Shown: positions 36,972 through 46,051 of the stretch, piece by piece
Layout of the letters: the number at the start of each line of letters is the position of its first letter
Position numbering within the stretch: position 1 is the first letter of the stretch
Source: Gammaproteobacteria bacterium
GTDB lineage: Bacteria; Pseudomonadota; Gammaproteobacteria; JABABF01
Assembly (NCBI GenBank): GCA_965237805.1
Contig: OZ250153.1
Location: 864,001 to 928,000 of the forward strand
Direction: 5' to 3'
Length of the DNA: 64,000 nucleotides
Program-made: the position numbers and the translations under genes
Notes under the pieces: generated by a model
Database searches by the model: none
What the model was told of the DNA's origin: nothing
Seen by the model: only the letters and a program-made list of their open reading frames with translations

Positions 36972-37808
36972 ATGGCGCTAATCGATGGCATCGCCATGGA
37001 GCTGCGGGCAGCCGCCCGCGATGCAAAAATGGCTCGCGGGCTGATCTACGCCATGGTGCTGGATGCAGACGAAGGCATGCGTACGCGCCAACTGCAAGGC
37101 ATTGAAGAAGAAGCGGACGTCGGTATCGCCGAGTCAGTGCGCCAGCTGTACCCCCTGCTGGCAAACATCAACCCCCTGCAACGCATCGTCTTGGTTGAAG
37201 AAGCCCTGAGTGCGCTGAAAAAACTGCCGATGCCAGCACATCAACGCTTTTCAGAATATTTGGTAGCGCTGAGCGAATCTGATCTGCAGATCACACTGTT
37301 CGAGTGGGTGTTGCATCAAATCGTGCTACAGGGGCTGACACCACGTGCTGACAGTTCCCCAAACCGAACGCTCGCCACGGCCACTAAAAGCATTGTCACA
37401 CTGTTGTCGACGCTGGCCAACCATGGTGGCGACATGCCCCCGACGGGGCCAGGAAATGGTGCTGGAATGCGGTCAAAGACGGCGATGGATAAAATGCAGA
37501 CGACGTTGGCGCGACAGGCTTTTGCGCAGGGGTGCCAAGCACTTGACATCCAAGAGGAGCTGGATGATAGTCCGGATCCCGACTACCTGCGCCTGAGCCA
37601 TGCCATACGAGATCTTCGCGAATTGCCTCAAGAGCTGCAAGAAAAGGTGCTAGATGCCTGCGCCACTATCGCGCTCGCCGACGCGCAGCTGGCCGGTGAC
37701 GAAGTCGCCCTGCTGTACGCTTTCGCCACCGCCCTCAATTGCCCCTTGCCGAACTCGATCGCTCAGGCCGTCAAGGCACTGGACAACACCGCAGGCGCTC
37801 CCGCCTGA
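36972..37808 (+). CDS. Isolated C-terminal region of a LemA-associated M48/HtpX-like peptidase (no HEXXH; probable remnant)
   Basis: ARGLIYAMVLD, LVEEALSALKKL, ESDLQITLFEW, ADAQL...E..LL...A.ALNCPLP pattern; lemA remnant nearby. Confidence 0.6.
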   Translation: MALIDGIAMELRAAARDAKMARGLIYAMVLDADEGMRTRQLQGIEEEADVGIAESVRQLYPLLANINPLQRIVLVEEALSALKKLPMPAHQRFSEYLVALSESDLQITLFEWVLHQIVLQGLTPRADSSPNRTLATATKSIVTLLSTLANHGGDMPPTGPGNGAGMRSKTAMDKMQTTLARQAFAQGCQALDIQEELDDSPDPDYLRLSHAIRDLRELPQELQEKVLDACATIALADAQLAGDEVALLYAFATALNCPLPNSIAQAVKALDNTAGAPA

Positions 37809-40633: not shown

Positions 40634-41734
40634 ATGAGCGAAATCAAGCGGGCCAAGGCCATCACCGAGGACGGTGCCAAGCTGTTCATTCAGGATGTGA
40701 CGTTGCGCGACGGCATGCATGCCATCCGCCATATGTATGGCATCGAGCATGTGCAGAAGATCGCACGGGCACTCGACGCGGCGCGGGTGGATGCGCTGGA
40801 AGTGGCGCACGGCGACGGCTTGGCTGGCTCCAGCTTCAACTACGGCTTCGGCGCACACACCGACAAAGAGTGGATCGCGGCGGTGGCCGATGTGCTGGAG
40901 CACGCACGGCTGACGACGCTGATCCTGCCCGGTATCGCCGTCAAGGGAGACTTGAAATGGGCGTGGGACTTGGGGGTGCGTTCGGTGCGCGTGGCGACGC
41001 ACTGCACCGAGGCCGATGTCTCGCGCCAGCACATCGAATACGCCCGCGAGCTGGGCATGGACACTGTCGGCTTTCTGATGATGTCGCATATGAGCGGGCC
41101 CGAGGCGCTGGCCGAACAAGCCGCTCTGATGGAGAGCTACGGGGCGCAGTGCGTCTATGTCGTAGACAGCGGCGGGGCGCTGAACATGGACGACACCGAG
41201 GCGCGCTTCCGCGCTTTCGACGCCGCGCTCAAGCCCGAGACCGAACGCGGCATCCACGCGCACCACAACTTGGCCTTGGGCGTGGCCAATTCAGTGGTGG
41301 CGGTGCAAAACGGTGCCAACCGGGTGGACGCCTCGCTGGCCGGCATGGGTGCCGGTGCTGGCAATGCGCCACTGGAGGTATTCATCGCAGCAGTGGAGCG
41401 CATGGGCTGGAACCACGGCTGCGAATTGTATCCACTGATGGATGCCGCCGACGACTTGGTGCGACCACTGCAAGATCGCCCGGTGCGGGTGGACCGCGAG
41501 ACGCTGTCCTTGGGCTACGCCGGGGTCTATTCCAGCTTCCTGCGTCACGCCGAGCGGGCGGCGGAGCGCTACGAGTTGGAGACGCGGGACATCCTCGTCG
41601 AGCTGGGACGCCGCCGTATGGTCGGCGGACAGGAAGACATGATCGTCGATGTGGCGCTGGACATGGTGAAAGCGCGGGAAGGTGCTGGCGAGGCGGCGGC
41701 GGACAGCGAGGGCCAGCGCAAGGCGGCGGGGTGA
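40634..41734 (+). CDS. mhpE: 4-hydroxy-2-oxovalerate aldolase, MhpE/DmpG/HsaF family
   Basis: [40 protein letters not shown]. Confidence 0.95.
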
Positions 41735-43284
41735 TGGCTAAAGACAAAAATCGCAAAACCATACCGGCTATTCGCATTGAACAATGGATGCAGGAGTGGG
41801 AGGAAATACCTGACTCACAGGAGATGGAGAGGCATTTCTATGCTTTCAGCATGAATGTTTTAGATCTGAAGCGATTAAGCGCTGTACATCAACGTAGCAC
41901 TCAAGGGAGAGAGAGTGCTAGTCAGGATGACAATATACAACGAAGGCTAGATATAGGGAGATCTAAAAAGATTGCTCAGTATGTGCGCTATGGGTACCCG
42001 ATGGACACTGTCACAAAAACCGCACAGGAAAAGGAAGATATAAGCCTGCGTAATCCCGGATGGTTGCCTGCCATTATAGTAAATATCGTCAAGAGTGAAG
42101 ATACAAGAATATTGAGAAAGGATGCAGTAAAAATCGAAGATAATGGGAATTCAAGATTTGAGATCAAACTACCAAACGGATTTAACAAGAATTGGGAGCC
42201 TACAGCACTACACCCAATCGAAGTCATTGATGGGCAACACAGGCTTGCTGCATTCGAAGAAACCACTGAGGAGGGCAAATATGAAAAATATGAGTTGCCA
42301 GTTATCGCATTCCACGGCCTTAGCCGCGCAAAGCAAGCCTATCTGTTTTACACAATTAACATACGCCCCAAAAAAATAAATACAAGTTTGGCTTATGATT
42401 TATACCCATTGTTGAGGCAAGCAACATGGCTGGAAAGCGGCCCAGATGCCCACAAGGTGCAGGCATACAGGGAGATCAGGGCACGCGAGATTATCGACCT
42501 GCTGTGGGGGCACCCCAAGAGCCCGTGGCAGCATCGTATAAATATGCTTGGAGAATCCTTGGGGCAGGAGGCTGGAACCCAAGTATCACAAGCAGCTTGG
42601 GTGCGGTCACTATATAGTACTTTCATGAAAAAATCCACAAGTAAAATTGGTGGTTTATACTATGCTAAAAACCTTAATTCCGACAACGAAAACAACGATC
42701 CATGGGCTTGGCCTATTAGTCAGCAAGTAGCTCTTTTGATAACAATGGGGAATATGCTACGGCACCATCTGAATAATAGTGAGTCCTTCAATAGCAAATT
42801 TTGTCTTCTAAACCAAGATGTTGGCATGCGAGGTTTGTTAAATTTATGGAATGACATGCTTTTTACTTGGGCAAGTGAATCTTCCAACAATGCCAAACAA
42901 TTGCACGACGCTTTCAAGTTGCCACCCCCAACAGGACAGCAAGAGGAGCCCTCAGAGGCACACAATGAATTGCACAAAAAAATAGATATGTGTCTTCAAA
43001 AAAGCATGGTCAGGGATCCGACAGATGAAAATTCAGCACTAGATTTCATGGACAACTTGTCTAAACATCTTTCCAGTTATAATTGGAACACTTTCAAGCA
43101 TGAAGCAGTGCAGCAATTACCTGCAGATTCTATCACCCGGATCCAAAAACAAGCCTTGCGAGGATCCGCCGGATACAAAATCATACGAGAAGGGCTGATC
43201 AAGCATATACAGGATCAGGGCAGCAATACGGAAATTTCAAATATAGCAAGCATTATATCGGAAAAACATGGAATCCAACCCTAA
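41734..43284 (+). CDS. DGQHR-domain (DndB/ParB-like) protein
   Basis: IQRR, PGWLP.IIVNI, IEVIDGQHRL, QAYLFYTIN..PKKIN.SLAYDL; ATG overlaps the mhpE stop (TGATG); AT-rich. Confidence 0.9.
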   Translation: MAKDKNRKTIPAIRIEQWMQEWEEIPDSQEMERHFYAFSMNVLDLKRLSAVHQRSTQGRESASQDDNIQRRLDIGRSKKIAQYVRYGYPMDTVTKTAQEKEDISLRNPGWLPAIIVNIVKSEDTRILRKDAVKIEDNGNSRFEIKLPNGFNKNWEPTALHPIEVIDGQHRLAAFEETTEEGKYEKYELPVIAFHGLSRAKQAYLFYTINIRPKKINTSLAYDLYPLLRQATWLESGPDAHKVQAYREIRAREIIDLLWGHPKSPWQHRINMLGESLGQEAGTQVSQAAWVRSLYSTFMKKSTSKIGGLYYAKNLNSDNENNDPWAWPISQQVALLITMGNMLRHHLNNSESFNSKFCLLNQDVGMRGLLNLWNDMLFTWASESSNNAKQLHDAFKLPPPTGQQEEPSEAHNELHKKIDMCLQKSMVRDPTDENSALDFMDNLSKHLSSYNWNTFKHEAVQQLPADSITRIQKQALRGSAGYKIIREGLIKHIQDQGSNTEISNIASIISEKHGIQP

Positions 43285-43292
43285 AATCTATT

Positions 43293-44570
43293 ATGAGTTC
43301 CCAGGGGCAGCGCAGAAACACGGAAGAAATGATGGGAGTATTTGACCGTGCATCCACTGCCAGTGTCGCAGGGGCTGCCGCGGAAATTCAGATTGAAGAT
43401 TTCAATTTTTCCACCCTAAACCCAAGTAATAGTTCACCTAAAAATACACATTTTTTGGCTAGCGCGATAGCGCATGGGCTAGATGGGTGGGAATATTTGG
43501 GTATGGCACTTATGAGCCACCTCCATGGCAGGCATATAATAGCCTTCCATCTGGCTTATTACGCACAGTTGAGAGCAGCTAAATCCCTATTATGCTGCAA
43601 CGGAATCTATCTAGAAGGCAGCATTGCATATGTTCTGAAAGAAAGCCAGTATAAGGGTGAGAGAGAACAATTGTCAGGGGCAAAAGGGCCGCATGAAATA
43701 ATATGGGAAATGCACAATAAAATGCCTGCAGAAAGTTGGATTGACAATGTATTCGGCTTCAATATACTGGAATTTATTAAGGACGTAACAGATGGCATGG
43801 TCGGCGATGAAGCAGTTTCCAAAGTTATTCAAAAACTAAAACAGCAACTCGGCAGAGAATCTGCATTCAGCGATAAAACAAAGTTCTACAGAAATCATGT
43901 GAGTTATCAAGCTCAATCTATTATTAAGGGTGAAAATACGGCAGAATCAATCGACGATAAATATGAATTTGCAAAGACATTTTGGGCCACAATGTCTCCA
44001 GACATAGCAATAAAATTAATCTTGATTTCTGAAATTTTACGAAGCCTAAAAAGATATGTGTCCAGATCACATTTAGCACGCTATAAGCTGAAAATTGAAT
44101 CCGCACTGCAAGATCATGGAATTGATCAGGGAGGGATAGAATGGATAACAAGAGGACCAGATAGTGAAGATGGTAAAAGTATTCAATTTTGGGCTCTGCA
44201 AGAGGATATATTAATGGGAGAGGATTTTTCCAAAGTGGCACCGCATTATGTGCAATGCGCTATAAGCAGAGGCGCCTTATTGCTCCAGATCGCATCGGAT
44301 GCCTGCAAGGACAGGATCGGAGACTCTCAGAATGCTAAATCAGTAGTACACGAAGTGGCAGAATTGTTTGGTGAGAAAAGGGCTCTGTGGGAAGACTCAG
44401 GAGAGATCGAAAGGTATGCTGATTTATACATTCCTATAACAAGTTATTTCGATGATGGGGATGGGGGAGATGATGCGAGAAAATGGACGTCTATACAAAA
44501 AATAGCGGCACTGGGATGTGAAAGAATTGCGCTCTGGCTACTCATGCCAGATGATGGGCCTGAATCGTGA
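43293..44570 (+). CDS. Putative HEPN-fold protein
   Basis: HLAYYAQLRAAKSLL..NG, conserved-looking His (GPHE), and YRNHVSY (R-x4-Y) match the HEPN pattern. Confidence 0.6.
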   Translation: MSSQGQRRNTEEMMGVFDRASTASVAGAAAEIQIEDFNFSTLNPSNSSPKNTHFLASAIAHGLDGWEYLGMALMSHLHGRHIIAFHLAYYAQLRAAKSLLCCNGIYLEGSIAYVLKESQYKGEREQLSGAKGPHEIIWEMHNKMPAESWIDNVFGFNILEFIKDVTDGMVGDEAVSKVIQKLKQQLGRESAFSDKTKFYRNHVSYQAQSIIKGENTAESIDDKYEFAKTFWATMSPDIAIKLILISEILRSLKRYVSRSHLARYKLKIESALQDHGIDQGGIEWITRGPDSEDGKSIQFWALQEDILMGEDFSKVAPHYVQCAISRGALLLQIASDACKDRIGDSQNAKSVVHEVAELFGEKRALWEDSGEIERYADLYIPITSYFDDGDGGDDARKWTSIQKIAALGCERIALWLLMPDDGPES

Positions 44571-45697
44571 CTATAAAATATATGGGCTCAAAACAAAATA
44601 TGCTTGCAAATGGTCTTGGAAAATTATTAAAGAAAGAATGCGAAGGGAGAAAAAGATTCGTTGACCTATTTTGTGGATCTGGATCTGTATCCCATTACAT
44701 GGCAGAGCACAGTTCTCTGCCTGTTGTAGCGGTTGATCTACAGAAGTATTCCACTATGCTTTCTAATGCCATAATAAATCGAACCGACACTGTCGAGCCA
44801 AGTATATTTGACCAATGGCTGAGTCGTATTAATTCCAAAAGGATCAAGCGAAAATTCCGGAACATGGAATATAAGGAAAATCACTGTTTCAAGGAGTACG
44901 CAGAACAAGCACGAATGTCTTGTGCGCAATCACGCGGCTATATAACCAAAGCATATGGGGGTCATTATTTTAGCCCACAACAAGCATTGACTTTAGATGT
45001 GGCATTGGAAACCGCTCCTCAACGTCAGCCCGATTACACGATGGGTATCGCAGCTCTCATTGTGGCTGCAAGTAAGTGTGCTGCCGCCCCTGGCCATACG
45101 GCACAGCCATTGAATCCATATAAAAAAGCATCTAAATTTGTTCGGCGAGCATGGGAGAATGATATTCTTATTATTTTAAAAAATACTCTAATAAATTTCT
45201 CCCAAAGAAAAGCACAAAAAAGAGGGGGTGCTTTGGTGTCAAATGCAAATGATTTTGCCAAGGAAGTAAGGCGTGGCGACCTAGTGTTTATTGATCCTCC
45301 ATATTCCGAAGTGCAATATAGCAGATTCTATCATGTGTTAGAAACAATTGCTCAAGGACGTTGCAGTAAAGTTTCTGGCGTTGGGCGCTATCCTCCTCAG
45401 CTAGAGAGGCCTAGATCAGAATATAGTCTCCGCTCGCAATCAAGTAAAGCTTTAGAATCTATATTAGATATTTTATCTTCCAAAGGTTGTAAAGTGGTGA
45501 TGACGTTTCCAAGAAAAGAGTGTAGCAATGGGTTATCAGGTGACCAGGTGATTTCCTTGTCTGAAAAATACTTTAGGAATGTAGCAACGACAACACCGGA
45601 TCATGCGGAATTAAGCACTTTAGGTGGTTTTAAGGATACAAAACGTGGAGCCCGCCAAGTATCAACAGAAATGATCCTGACCTTATCAACACATTGA
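44567..45697 (+). CDS. D12-class (alpha) N6-adenine DNA methyltransferase, M.NlaIII/M.FokI-like
   Basis: KYMGSK, FVDLFCGSGSVS, FIDPPY..VQYSRFYHVLETI; GTGA overlap with the upstream gene. Confidence 0.92.
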   Translation: MTIKYMGSKQNMLANGLGKLLKKECEGRKRFVDLFCGSGSVSHYMAEHSSLPVVAVDLQKYSTMLSNAIINRTDTVEPSIFDQWLSRINSKRIKRKFRNMEYKENHCFKEYAEQARMSCAQSRGYITKAYGGHYFSPQQALTLDVALETAPQRQPDYTMGIAALIVAASKCAAAPGHTAQPLNPYKKASKFVRRAWENDILIILKNTLINFSQRKAQKRGGALVSNANDFAKEVRRGDLVFIDPPYSEVQYSRFYHVLETIAQGRCSKVSGVGRYPPQLERPRSEYSLRSQSSKALESILDILSSKGCKVVMTFPRKECSNGLSGDQVISLSEKYFRNVATTTPDHAELSTLGGFKDTKRGARQVSTEMILTLSTH

Positions 45698-45724
45698 TGA
45701 CCGACCAGAACCACACGCCCCCCC

Positions 45725-46051
45725 ATGCCATACCTCTACCTCACCCTAGCCATCGTCACCGAAGTCATCGGCACCAGCGCGCTCAAGGCCTCAGAAGGCT
45801 TTACGCTGTGGCGGCCCAGTGCGCTGACGATGTTCAGTTACGCCCTGTCGTTGTATTTTTTTGCCCTGTCGTTGAAAACCATTCCGGTCGGCGTCGCCTA
45901 CGCCATCTGGGCTGGCGCTGGCATCGCTCTGATTACTCTCGTCGGGGCGGCAGTCTTCAAGCAGTACCCGGACGGCCCAGCTCTGTTCGGTATCGCCCTG
46001 ATCTGCGCTGGTGTGATCACCATCTATCTGTTCTCTAAAATGGCACACTAA
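45725..46051 (+). CDS. SMR family multidrug efflux protein (EmrE/QacE-like)
   Basis: AIVTEVIGTSALKASEGFT, IPVGVAYAIWAG.G. Confidence 0.95.
   Translation: MPYLYLTLAIVTEVIGTSALKASEGFTLWRPSALTMFSYALSLYFFALSLKTIPVGVAYAIWAGAGIALITLVGAAVFKQYPDGPALFGIALICAGVITIYLFSKMAH

Follow-up and report, generated by a model that had tools for sequence, protein, structure and literature searches.

What is the role of three genes, coding for a DGQHR-domain protein, an unannotated protein and a predicted N6-adenine DNA methyltransferase, that together form an AT-rich block between metabolic genes of a gammaproteobacterium? The block occupies positions 41734-45697 of the window, by which we mean the whole stretch of 64,000 nucleotides of contig OZ250153.1 that was analysed. 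A first-pass annotation had proposed it to be an undescribed defence system. We find that the first two genes form a conserved pair and that a DNA-modification gene, whose type can change, nearly always adjoins this pair. With a probability of about 50%, we favour the reading that the block is a horizontally acquired three-gene restriction or abortive-infection cassette keyed to DNA modification, in which the conserved pair would supply the sensor and the effector.

Three open reading frames (ORFs) on the + strand fill the block. Gene 1 (41734-43284) encodes P0001, a DGQHR-domain protein of 516 residues. Gene 2 (43293-44570) encodes P0002, an unannotated and mostly helical protein of 425 residues for which the predicted structure suggests a HEPN-like core. 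Gene 3 (44567-45697), which starts with GTG, encodes P0003, a predicted D12-class (Dam-like, alpha-type) N6-adenine DNA methyltransferase of 376 residues. Genes 1 and 2 are separated by 8 nt (43285-43292) and genes 2 and 3 overlap in GTGA, the GTG at 44567 lying over the TGA at 44568-44570. Judged from this sequence, the three genes are predicted to be translationally coupled. An abrupt AT-rich block of about 4 kb with three co-oriented genes, the junctions TGATG, 8-nt gap and GTGA, and the motifs IDGQHRL (within VIDGQHRLAAF), HLAYYAQLRAAKSLL, RNHVSY, FCGSG and DPPY (within FIDPPYSE) had all been listed in the first-pass annotation, and all are found as described.

Conservation of the gene pair and its linked modification genes

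Species-representative genomes were scanned by pattern, which yielded 127 loci, 80 of which were kept. Together with the tree described below, the loci are spread over Acidobacteriota, Chloroflexota, Actinomycetota, Pseudomonadota, Bacteroidota, Cyanobacteriota, Planctomycetota, Armatimonadota and Patescibacteria, and one lies in a Methanoregula metagenome-assembled genome (MAG). A DGQHR gene, whose product is 30-43% identical to P0001, is found directly upstream of the P0002 homologue in 79 of the 80 loci; the remaining locus is cut by a contig end. The two genes are tightly packed, with an intergenic gap of -40 to +18 nt in 54 of 55 pairs under a longest-ORF rule. The recurrence of this order of genes in many unrelated genomes shows that the block is no chance run of ORFs.

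The pair is also tightly linked to DNA-modification genes. Of the 67 loci whose flanks reach 1.3 kb or more on each side, 64 have such a gene next to the pair, and 73 of the 80 loci have one overall. The trio that had been predicted is thus conserved, with the qualification that its third member varies. The most common form is a 'long' D12 methylase, 38-48% identical to P0003, which lies directly downstream of the pair in 40 loci (38 where it stands alone, plus two double loci that carry two methylases). A short Dam-like D12 methylase takes the downstream position in 14 loci, and a Bacteroidota form of D12 is found upstream in 7. Methylases of the N6_N4 family (PF01555) lie on either side of the pair in 6 loci, with one more beside a long D12, and MT-A70 methylases are found upstream in 2. 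Three loci have a PAPS-reductase (DndC-like) gene downstream and an AAA_23 (DndD-like) gene nearby, one has a downstream D12 gene on the opposite strand, and in 7 no modification gene is seen.

The maximum-likelihood tree built from 55 rows of the concatenated pair does not follow taxonomy. The type of modification gene is clustered on this tree, about ten changes being needed to explain its distribution, and the window copy sits on a very long branch. A conserved, coupled pair combined with swappable modification enzymes argues for a restriction-type core that reads a mark of self.

Some of the loci deviate from the common layout. In the seven Bacteroidota-type loci (L012, L027, L042, L044, L062, L066 and L077), the DGQHR protein reaches about 725 residues and has an extra N-terminal part of about 210 residues, for which the L012 protein gives no Pfam match at 1e-4. 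Other copies look decayed: a 1.1-kb gap with an adjoining IS110 transposase separates the pair genes at L064:8637-9778, the DGQHR ORFs of L046 and L006 are split or short (353 residues in L006, which has no adjacent modification gene), and the middle gene of L073 is truncated (253 residues).

The DGQHR protein and the methylase

P0001 matches the DGQHR family TIGR03187 over residues 32-318 with 87.3 bits (cut-off 58.85) and the Pfam DndB hidden Markov model with 38.5 bits (cut-off 29.1). The residues that sign DGQHR domains are a QR pair, the DGQHR pentapeptide and FxxxN, as described in PMC4619093. All three signatures are kept in the P0001 family, with Q69-R70, D166-G167-Q168-H169-R170, F205 and N209 invariant in 55 sequences.

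The AlphaFold2 (AF2) model of P0001 has a predicted local distance difference test score (pLDDT) of 80.2. A structural comparison of this model with VIA-align points to a ParB/Srx-fold N-terminal domain at residues ~30-215, with modest Z values: the best match is PadC (6ryk_B, Z 7.2, root-mean-square deviation (rmsd) 2.9 over 100 aligned residues), followed by pNOB8 ParB-N (5.5), KorB (4.8), sulfiredoxin (4.7), SspE (6jiv, 3.8) and BrxU (7p9k, 3.3). For the helical C-terminal domain (residues 230-516) VIA-align gave no clear structural neighbour. Foldseek against the Protein Data Bank (PDB) returned nothing for P0001 at E <= 0.001, and a profile of the P0001 family found no meaningful match among PDB chains.

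The core of P0001 is homologous to DndB (hhalign probability 86.7%, E 4.4e-6). The full protein falls far below the DndB equivalog TIGR03233 (12.9 bits, cut-off 328) and the DpdB equivalog NF041060 (20.2 bits, cut-off 300), and the PADLOC DpdB model matches only weakly (E 3.7e-4). Neither PF03235 (GmrSD_N) nor DUF1524 was matched in Pfam at E <= 1. A complex prediction for P0001 with P0002 scored 0.24 against a mark of 0.32, which gives no verdict and is used neither way.

P0003 matches PF02086 with 66.9 bits (cut-off 22) and the PADLOC model MTase_II at E 2.8e-25. It has motif I as FCGSG and motif IV as DPPY (in FIDPPYSE), and its closest solved relative is T4 Dam, a weak match (E 0.003). From these matches, P0003 is predicted to be a D12-class N6-adenine DNA methyltransferase. 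The two family calls of the first-pass annotation, DGQHR and N6-adenine methylase, are therefore upheld by TIGR03187 and PF02086.

The middle protein

P0002 has no match in Pfam, NCBIfam or PADLOC (PADLOC-DB 2.0.0, 2023). That release of PADLOC-DB has no model for the pair, and 55 relatives of P0002 searched against it gave two unrelated single-member hits. The family is nevertheless large, with 590 clusters at E <= 1e-3 among 1.84 billion representatives (clustering at 50% identity). The nearest relative, P0004, is 56% identical to P0002, all others are at most 28% identical, and metagenome contigs contained no close relatives with the patterns used.

An AF2 model built from 79 sequences has a pLDDT of 87.4 and a predicted template modelling score of 0.90, which indicates a confidently predicted fold. 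VIA-align, which aligned the model to each of 48,161 chains, places five HEPN domains at the top: 2hsb_A (Z 9.3), 4nqf_B (8.3), 1ufb_A (8.1), 1wol_A (7.7) and 3o10_A (7.4). With 2hsb_A, 124 of 126 residues are aligned at an rmsd of 2.9. Csm6, a HEPN toxin, AbiV and AbiA are found lower in the list. This run of HEPN entries at the top is good but not conclusive evidence for a HEPN-like core in the modelled protein. The nearest named Atlas clusters, YaaC (0.77) and HEPN_AbiV (0.75), are taken as leads only, and a profile of the P0002 family gave no meaningful match to PDB chains.

Across the 79 sequences, the invariant columns are H61, W66, H86, Y90, L93, R94, G104, R200, N201, Y205 and R326. 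The set of 55 sequences adds H134 to these columns and has N201 almost invariant. Conservation centres on the motif R200-N201-x-x-S204-Y205, with R200-x4-Y205 at the end of a helix and a loop after it in the model. The HEPN-like assignment made earlier for the middle gene is supported, though not conclusively, at the level of the fold (top five chains, best Z 9.3). It is weakened at the level of the short motifs, as the H of RNHVSY is variable and the family shows no canonical Rx4-6H. The first-pass annotation would have been refuted by a middle gene for an ordinary type II restriction endonuclease; P0002 matches no nuclease family, and its fold search points to HEPN domains.

Some HEPN domains, namely those of AF0298 (the 2hsb structure) and AbiV, are described in PMC3710099 as lacking the motif His and having an alternative conserved His in the insert between helices 2 and 3. 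In the P0002 model, H134 lies within an insert that comes after helices 51-77 and 81-102 and a beta hairpin. H134 is possibly the AF0298/AbiV-type alternative His of P0002.

We also looked for fused forms of the middle protein of at least 822 residues and found none, which is weak evidence. At L018:9824-12304 a single ORF of 826 residues joins the middle protein and a D12 methylase; it may represent a true fusion or result from an error in assembly or frame.

Insertion site and mobile settings

The block stands out by its base composition. Each 500-nt bin from 42000 to 45499 has a GC content of 0.40-0.44 (overall about 0.42), compared to 0.63-0.70 in most of the flanking bins (about 0.65). At the left junction, TGATG (41732-41736, + strand), a DmpG/MhpE-type aldolase gene runs into gene 1: its TGA stop (41732-41734) and the ATG start at 41734 have one A in common. 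At the right junction, placed by the ORF map and GC content, a 27-nt spacer (45698-45724, + strand) precedes a small multidrug resistance (SMR) gene (45725-46051), which was assigned by Pfam and belongs to the core genome. A flavin monooxygenase gene and then gcvT/H/P follow to the right, and from about 46000 onwards the GC content is again 0.65. A simple scan for promoters and terminators found no promoter-like site upstream of gene 1, and fewer sites than in shuffled sequences; accordingly, the cassette may be read through from the upstream operon.

As had been noted earlier, dndC/D/E-like and dpdA-like genes are missing from the block, and so is any recognisable restriction endonuclease. 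A DndC search of the genome gave no match, dpdA not having been searched for genome-wide. Around the block we found no nearby tRNA, no integrase and no convincing flanking repeats.

P0002 was not found in 40 relatives, including one genome of the same genus (G001) and two of the same family (G002 and G003). In G001, the end of the aldolase gene is again GGGGTGATG, and the DNA from there to the contig end is another AT-rich stretch. After this aldolase gene lies a methylase-like ORF (L082:2733-2951, + strand) with FADPPYNL near its N-terminus, which is cut by the contig end. On a separate contig of G001, an Mrr_N+HNH gene (L085:1869-2420, - strand) precedes the SMR homologue, which is 77% identical to that of the window. 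The two contigs are not joined, and it is by inference that the methylase-like ORF and the HNH gene would form a single cassette. In G002 and G003, synteny stops about 50 nt before the aldolase stop. The aldolase/SMR site looks like a hot spot for cargo of the restriction-modification (R-M) type, in agreement with the defence role that had been proposed. Taken together, the GC content (0.42 versus 0.65), the absence from 40 relatives and the different cargo in G001 argue for horizontal transfer, which fits a role in defence.

Among the nearest flanking ORFs of at least 200 residues (110 ORFs at 57 loci), about 29 belong to R-M, toxin-antitoxin or mobile-element Pfam families by our own classing, made without a control, and 44 have no Pfam family at E <= 1e-6.

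The trio is found on mobile replicons as well. For example, a 30,952-bp plasmid of Zymomonas mobilis (L105, NC_013788.1, 'pZZM405') carries it under the annotation 'DGQHR domain-containing protein / hypothetical protein / Dam family methyltransferase', 1.9 kb upstream of DUF4433 and macro-domain (DarT/DarG-like) genes. Only four plasmid records in Zymomonas, identical and each of 30,952 bp, carry the trio. The record NC_013788.1 is labelled ZM4 and derives from strain CP4 according to PMC5930841; the ZM4 methylome (PMC8432527) is therefore inapplicable to the plasmid trio.

Such settings raise the alternative that the cassette serves a mobile element, with the methylase shielding the DNA of the element and the ParB-like pair acting in maintenance, partition or anti-defence. 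Besides the plasmids, the trio occupies all four IMG/VR contigs on which the middle gene was found, some flanks hold transposase, integrase or conjugation genes, and ParB-fold fusions to methylases are stated to be enriched in phages (bioRxiv 10.1101/2025.10.10.680097). Nevertheless, most of the 80 loci are chromosomal, and those four contigs are the only ones with the middle gene among 2.9 million viral contigs (with the pattern used). The window block itself, free of integrase, flanking repeats and tRNA, sits between metabolic genes, and no parA-like or centromere feature was seen. We consider a service to mobile elements very improbable.

Two further ORFs of the genome may be mentioned. In the window, a 278-residue ORF (36972-37808, + strand) upstream of meta-cleavage genes has no Pfam family at E <= 0.001. 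Outside the window, a second D12-class methylase ORF of 291 residues (G000:C1:769104-769817, - strand, locus L107) matches PF02086 with 55.4 bits.

Proposed function of the cassette

In the reading that we favour, the gene 3 product would methylate adenines of the host DNA and in this way mark self. Genes 1 and 2, translated together, would act as one unit, presumably a complex, that responds to DNA without the mark. The DGQHR protein, with its ParB/Srx fold, would be a nucleoside triphosphate (NTP)-dependent sensor that engages DNA and possibly nicks it, a role for which the DUF262 domains of SspE and GmrSD offer a likeness. The HEPN-fold partner would be the effector, or a regulatory scaffold of the effector. 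Its site would be non-canonical, of the AF0298/AbiV kind, with the insert His after helix 2 (H134) and a conserved Arg taking the place of Rx4-6H. By discriminating self from non-self, the cassette would act against phages or plasmids. A ParB/Srx fold, with its weaker matches to SspE and BrxU, and a HEPN fold are both what would fit defence proteins.

Several observations weigh against this reading. The HEPN call comes from Z values of 7-9 for a helical bundle, in a range (under about 13) that is possibly generic according to the tool, and Foldseek against the PDB returned nothing for the P0002 model at E <= 0.001. The P0002 family has no conserved R-x(4-6)-H in either the 79 or the 55 sequences, and a Pfam search recognised no DNase domain (PD-(D/E)xK, HNH, PLD or GIY-YIG) in P0001 or P0002. 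Three of the loci with full flanks have no adjacent modification gene, and in two of these (L005 and L014) the pair looks intact. In two loci a gene for a BglII-type endonuclease is also adjacent, so that the pair need not be the sole restriction component there. In L030, L040 and L051 the pair sits among DndC-like (PAPS reductase) and DndD-like (AAA_23) genes. Finally, the DGQHR proteins that have been studied act on the modification side: DndB is said to regulate phosphorothioation, and DpdB to be an ATPase that serves base insertion (PMC10853773, PMC12839542). The flanks of L030, L040 and L051 also contain genes for Uma2-family putative endonucleases, and the DndC-like gene of L040, to which no long ORF was mapped, may be broken.

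These points lead to the main rival of the favoured reading, namely that the pair controls modification and does not restrict. As a DGQHR NTPase with a helical partner, it would load, target or limit the adjoining modification enzyme, and the cassette, lacking a killing arm, would serve as an epigenetic or 'orphan' modification system. The homology of the P0001 core to DndB (hhalign probability 86.7%) and its weak match to DpdB fit this idea, as these two proteins have their published roles on the modification side; so do the three loci with Dnd-like genes, the missing nuclease domain and the missing canonical HEPN motif. However, four or more unrelated methylase families occur with the pair, in addition to the Dnd-like genes, which is hard to reconcile with a partner that loads a specific enzyme. 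Dam-like methylases work alone, and an accessory pair of 940 residues is large for a regulator. The island or hot-spot setting, with an alternative methylase-like ORF and an HNH gene at the site, fits defence instead. Overall, we regard a modification-control role as fairly unlikely.

There is also a bolder version of the sensor and effector scheme. The DGQHR and HEPN-fold pair might be a reader and effector that is agnostic to the kind of modification: it would accept any mark, be it N6-methyladenine (m6A) or N4-methylcytosine from the at least four methylase families, or phosphorothioate in the case of the DndC/D-like genes, and would restrict or abort infection when the mark is missing. It would combine a ParB-type NTP switch with a non-canonical HEPN active site. 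We find this version rather doubtful. If true, it would represent a new restriction principle, and it would suggest that the DndB-type proteins of Dnd and Dpd clusters are reduced relatives of an effector and not mere regulators.

If the trio works in defence as we propose, the known R-M-like modules would gain a compact and widespread member, seen in many bacterial phyla, at least one archaeal MAG, plasmids and predicted viral contigs. This module would restrict without a classical nuclease fold and would have swapped its modification arm repeatedly. An unannotated protein family with 590 or more clusters (50% identity) would thereby acquire a function, as would a large DGQHR subfamily annotated only as 'DGQHR domain-containing protein'. 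More generally, the trio bears on what ParB/Srx DGQHR proteins such as DndB and DpdB do in DNA-modification systems. Zymomonas mobilis CP4, which carries the trio on a native plasmid, is a culturable and genetically tractable host.

Comparison with known systems

With DndB and DpdB the trio has the DGQHR domain in common, the homology to DndB being limited to the core. Unlike these proteins, P0001 is about 150 residues longer and always comes with a partner of about 440 residues, and the block lies outside any dndBCDE cluster. The ParB-like core of COG1479, DUF262 and DGQHR proteins is often fused to HNH, PD-(D/E)xK or HEPN domains, and for DndB a fusion of the ParB-like core to a HEPN domain is described (Makarova et al. 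2013, PMC3632139). We considered the pair as a split DndB and rejected this for P0002, which gives an hhalign probability of 0.2% against DndB.

Type II R-M systems with a Dam-like methylase (DpnII type) are alike in having a stand-alone D12 methylase beside non-methylase genes, in a cassette that is mobile and variable. They differ in that the pair contains no PD-(D/E)xK, HNH or other known endonuclease fold that we could find.

In SspE of the SspABCD-SspE system and in the type IV enzymes GmrSD and BrxU, an NTPase domain of the ParB/Srx fold that bears a DGQ(Q/H)R motif is coupled to an effector and connected with DNA modification. SspE and BrxU are also among the weak fold matches of P0001 (Z 3.8 and 3.3). 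They are single proteins with a DUF1524 (HNH-like) nuclease domain, whereas in the trio the candidate for the effector is a HEPN-fold protein of its own, and the mark would mostly be m6A from a simple methylase, as predicted from the linked genes.

The closest parallel in architecture is found among HEPN proteins. Operons of a ParB-type protein, HEPN_MAE_28990 (PF18737) and a DNA methylase were noted, on computational grounds only, in Table 1 of Anantharaman et al. (2013, PMC3710099). The view of the first-pass annotation that no characterised system has this composition holds for the literature searched, where no description of the trio was found, although the supplements of PMC3710099 and PMC10853773 (family lists and neighbourhoods) may contain the family; it is weakened by this parallel operon.

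We surveyed PF18737 in 301 cyanobacterial genomes, 59 of which have a match above the cut-off, and inspected the 15 best loci (L086-L100). In all 15, a GmrSD_N (DUF262) protein of about 370 residues is encoded directly upstream with an overlap of 1-4 nt, and in 3 of the 15 a C5 methylase gene adjoins the HEPN_MAE_28990 gene. The HEPN_MAE_28990 protein has about 220 residues and an invariant R-x4-H (R168 and H173). This two-gene module is widespread in cyanobacteria, and we found no name for it.

As in the block, where the HEPN fold is a prediction, a ParB/Srx-fold gene lies directly upstream of a HEPN-fold gene, the two are tightly coupled and a methylase gene is sometimes adjacent. The differences are in the families. 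The partner is a DUF262/GmrSD_N protein there and a DGQHR protein here (hhalign probability 2.5%), and the ~220-residue protein with its R-x4-H contrasts with the 425 residues of P0002, which have no such motif. P0002 was rejected as a member of HEPN_MAE_28990: hhalign gives a probability of 0.1%, and neither P0002 nor its 55 relatives match PF18737.

This parallel bears on another explanation, in which the pair works by itself, as a self-contained module of the abortive-infection or toxin-antitoxin-like type. The ParB-like NTPase would restrain a HEPN-fold toxin, and the pair would guard methylases or R-M systems, or ride beside them, without reading the methyl mark. PrrC, which guards EcoprrI, is a HEPN protein attached to an R-M context, and R-M operons contain many HEPN clades that form a second line of defence (both in PMC3710099); the trio differs from PrrC in having neither an ABC-ATPase nor an anticodon-nuclease architecture. 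The HEPN-like fold predicted for P0002, the cyanobacterial module that mostly does without a methylase, and the intact pairs of L005 and L014 all point in the direction of a self-contained module. On the other hand, the adjacency of a modification gene in 64 of 67 loci is far tighter than in the parallel pair, the three window genes appear to be translationally coupled, and P0002 has no canonical RNase motif. We judge a self-contained module to be quite unlikely.

Judged from gene content, the ParB, HEPN and methylase architecture thus has a computational precedent, from which the trio of the window differs in its protein families and in how tightly a methylase is linked, the link being near-constant here and only occasional in the precedent.

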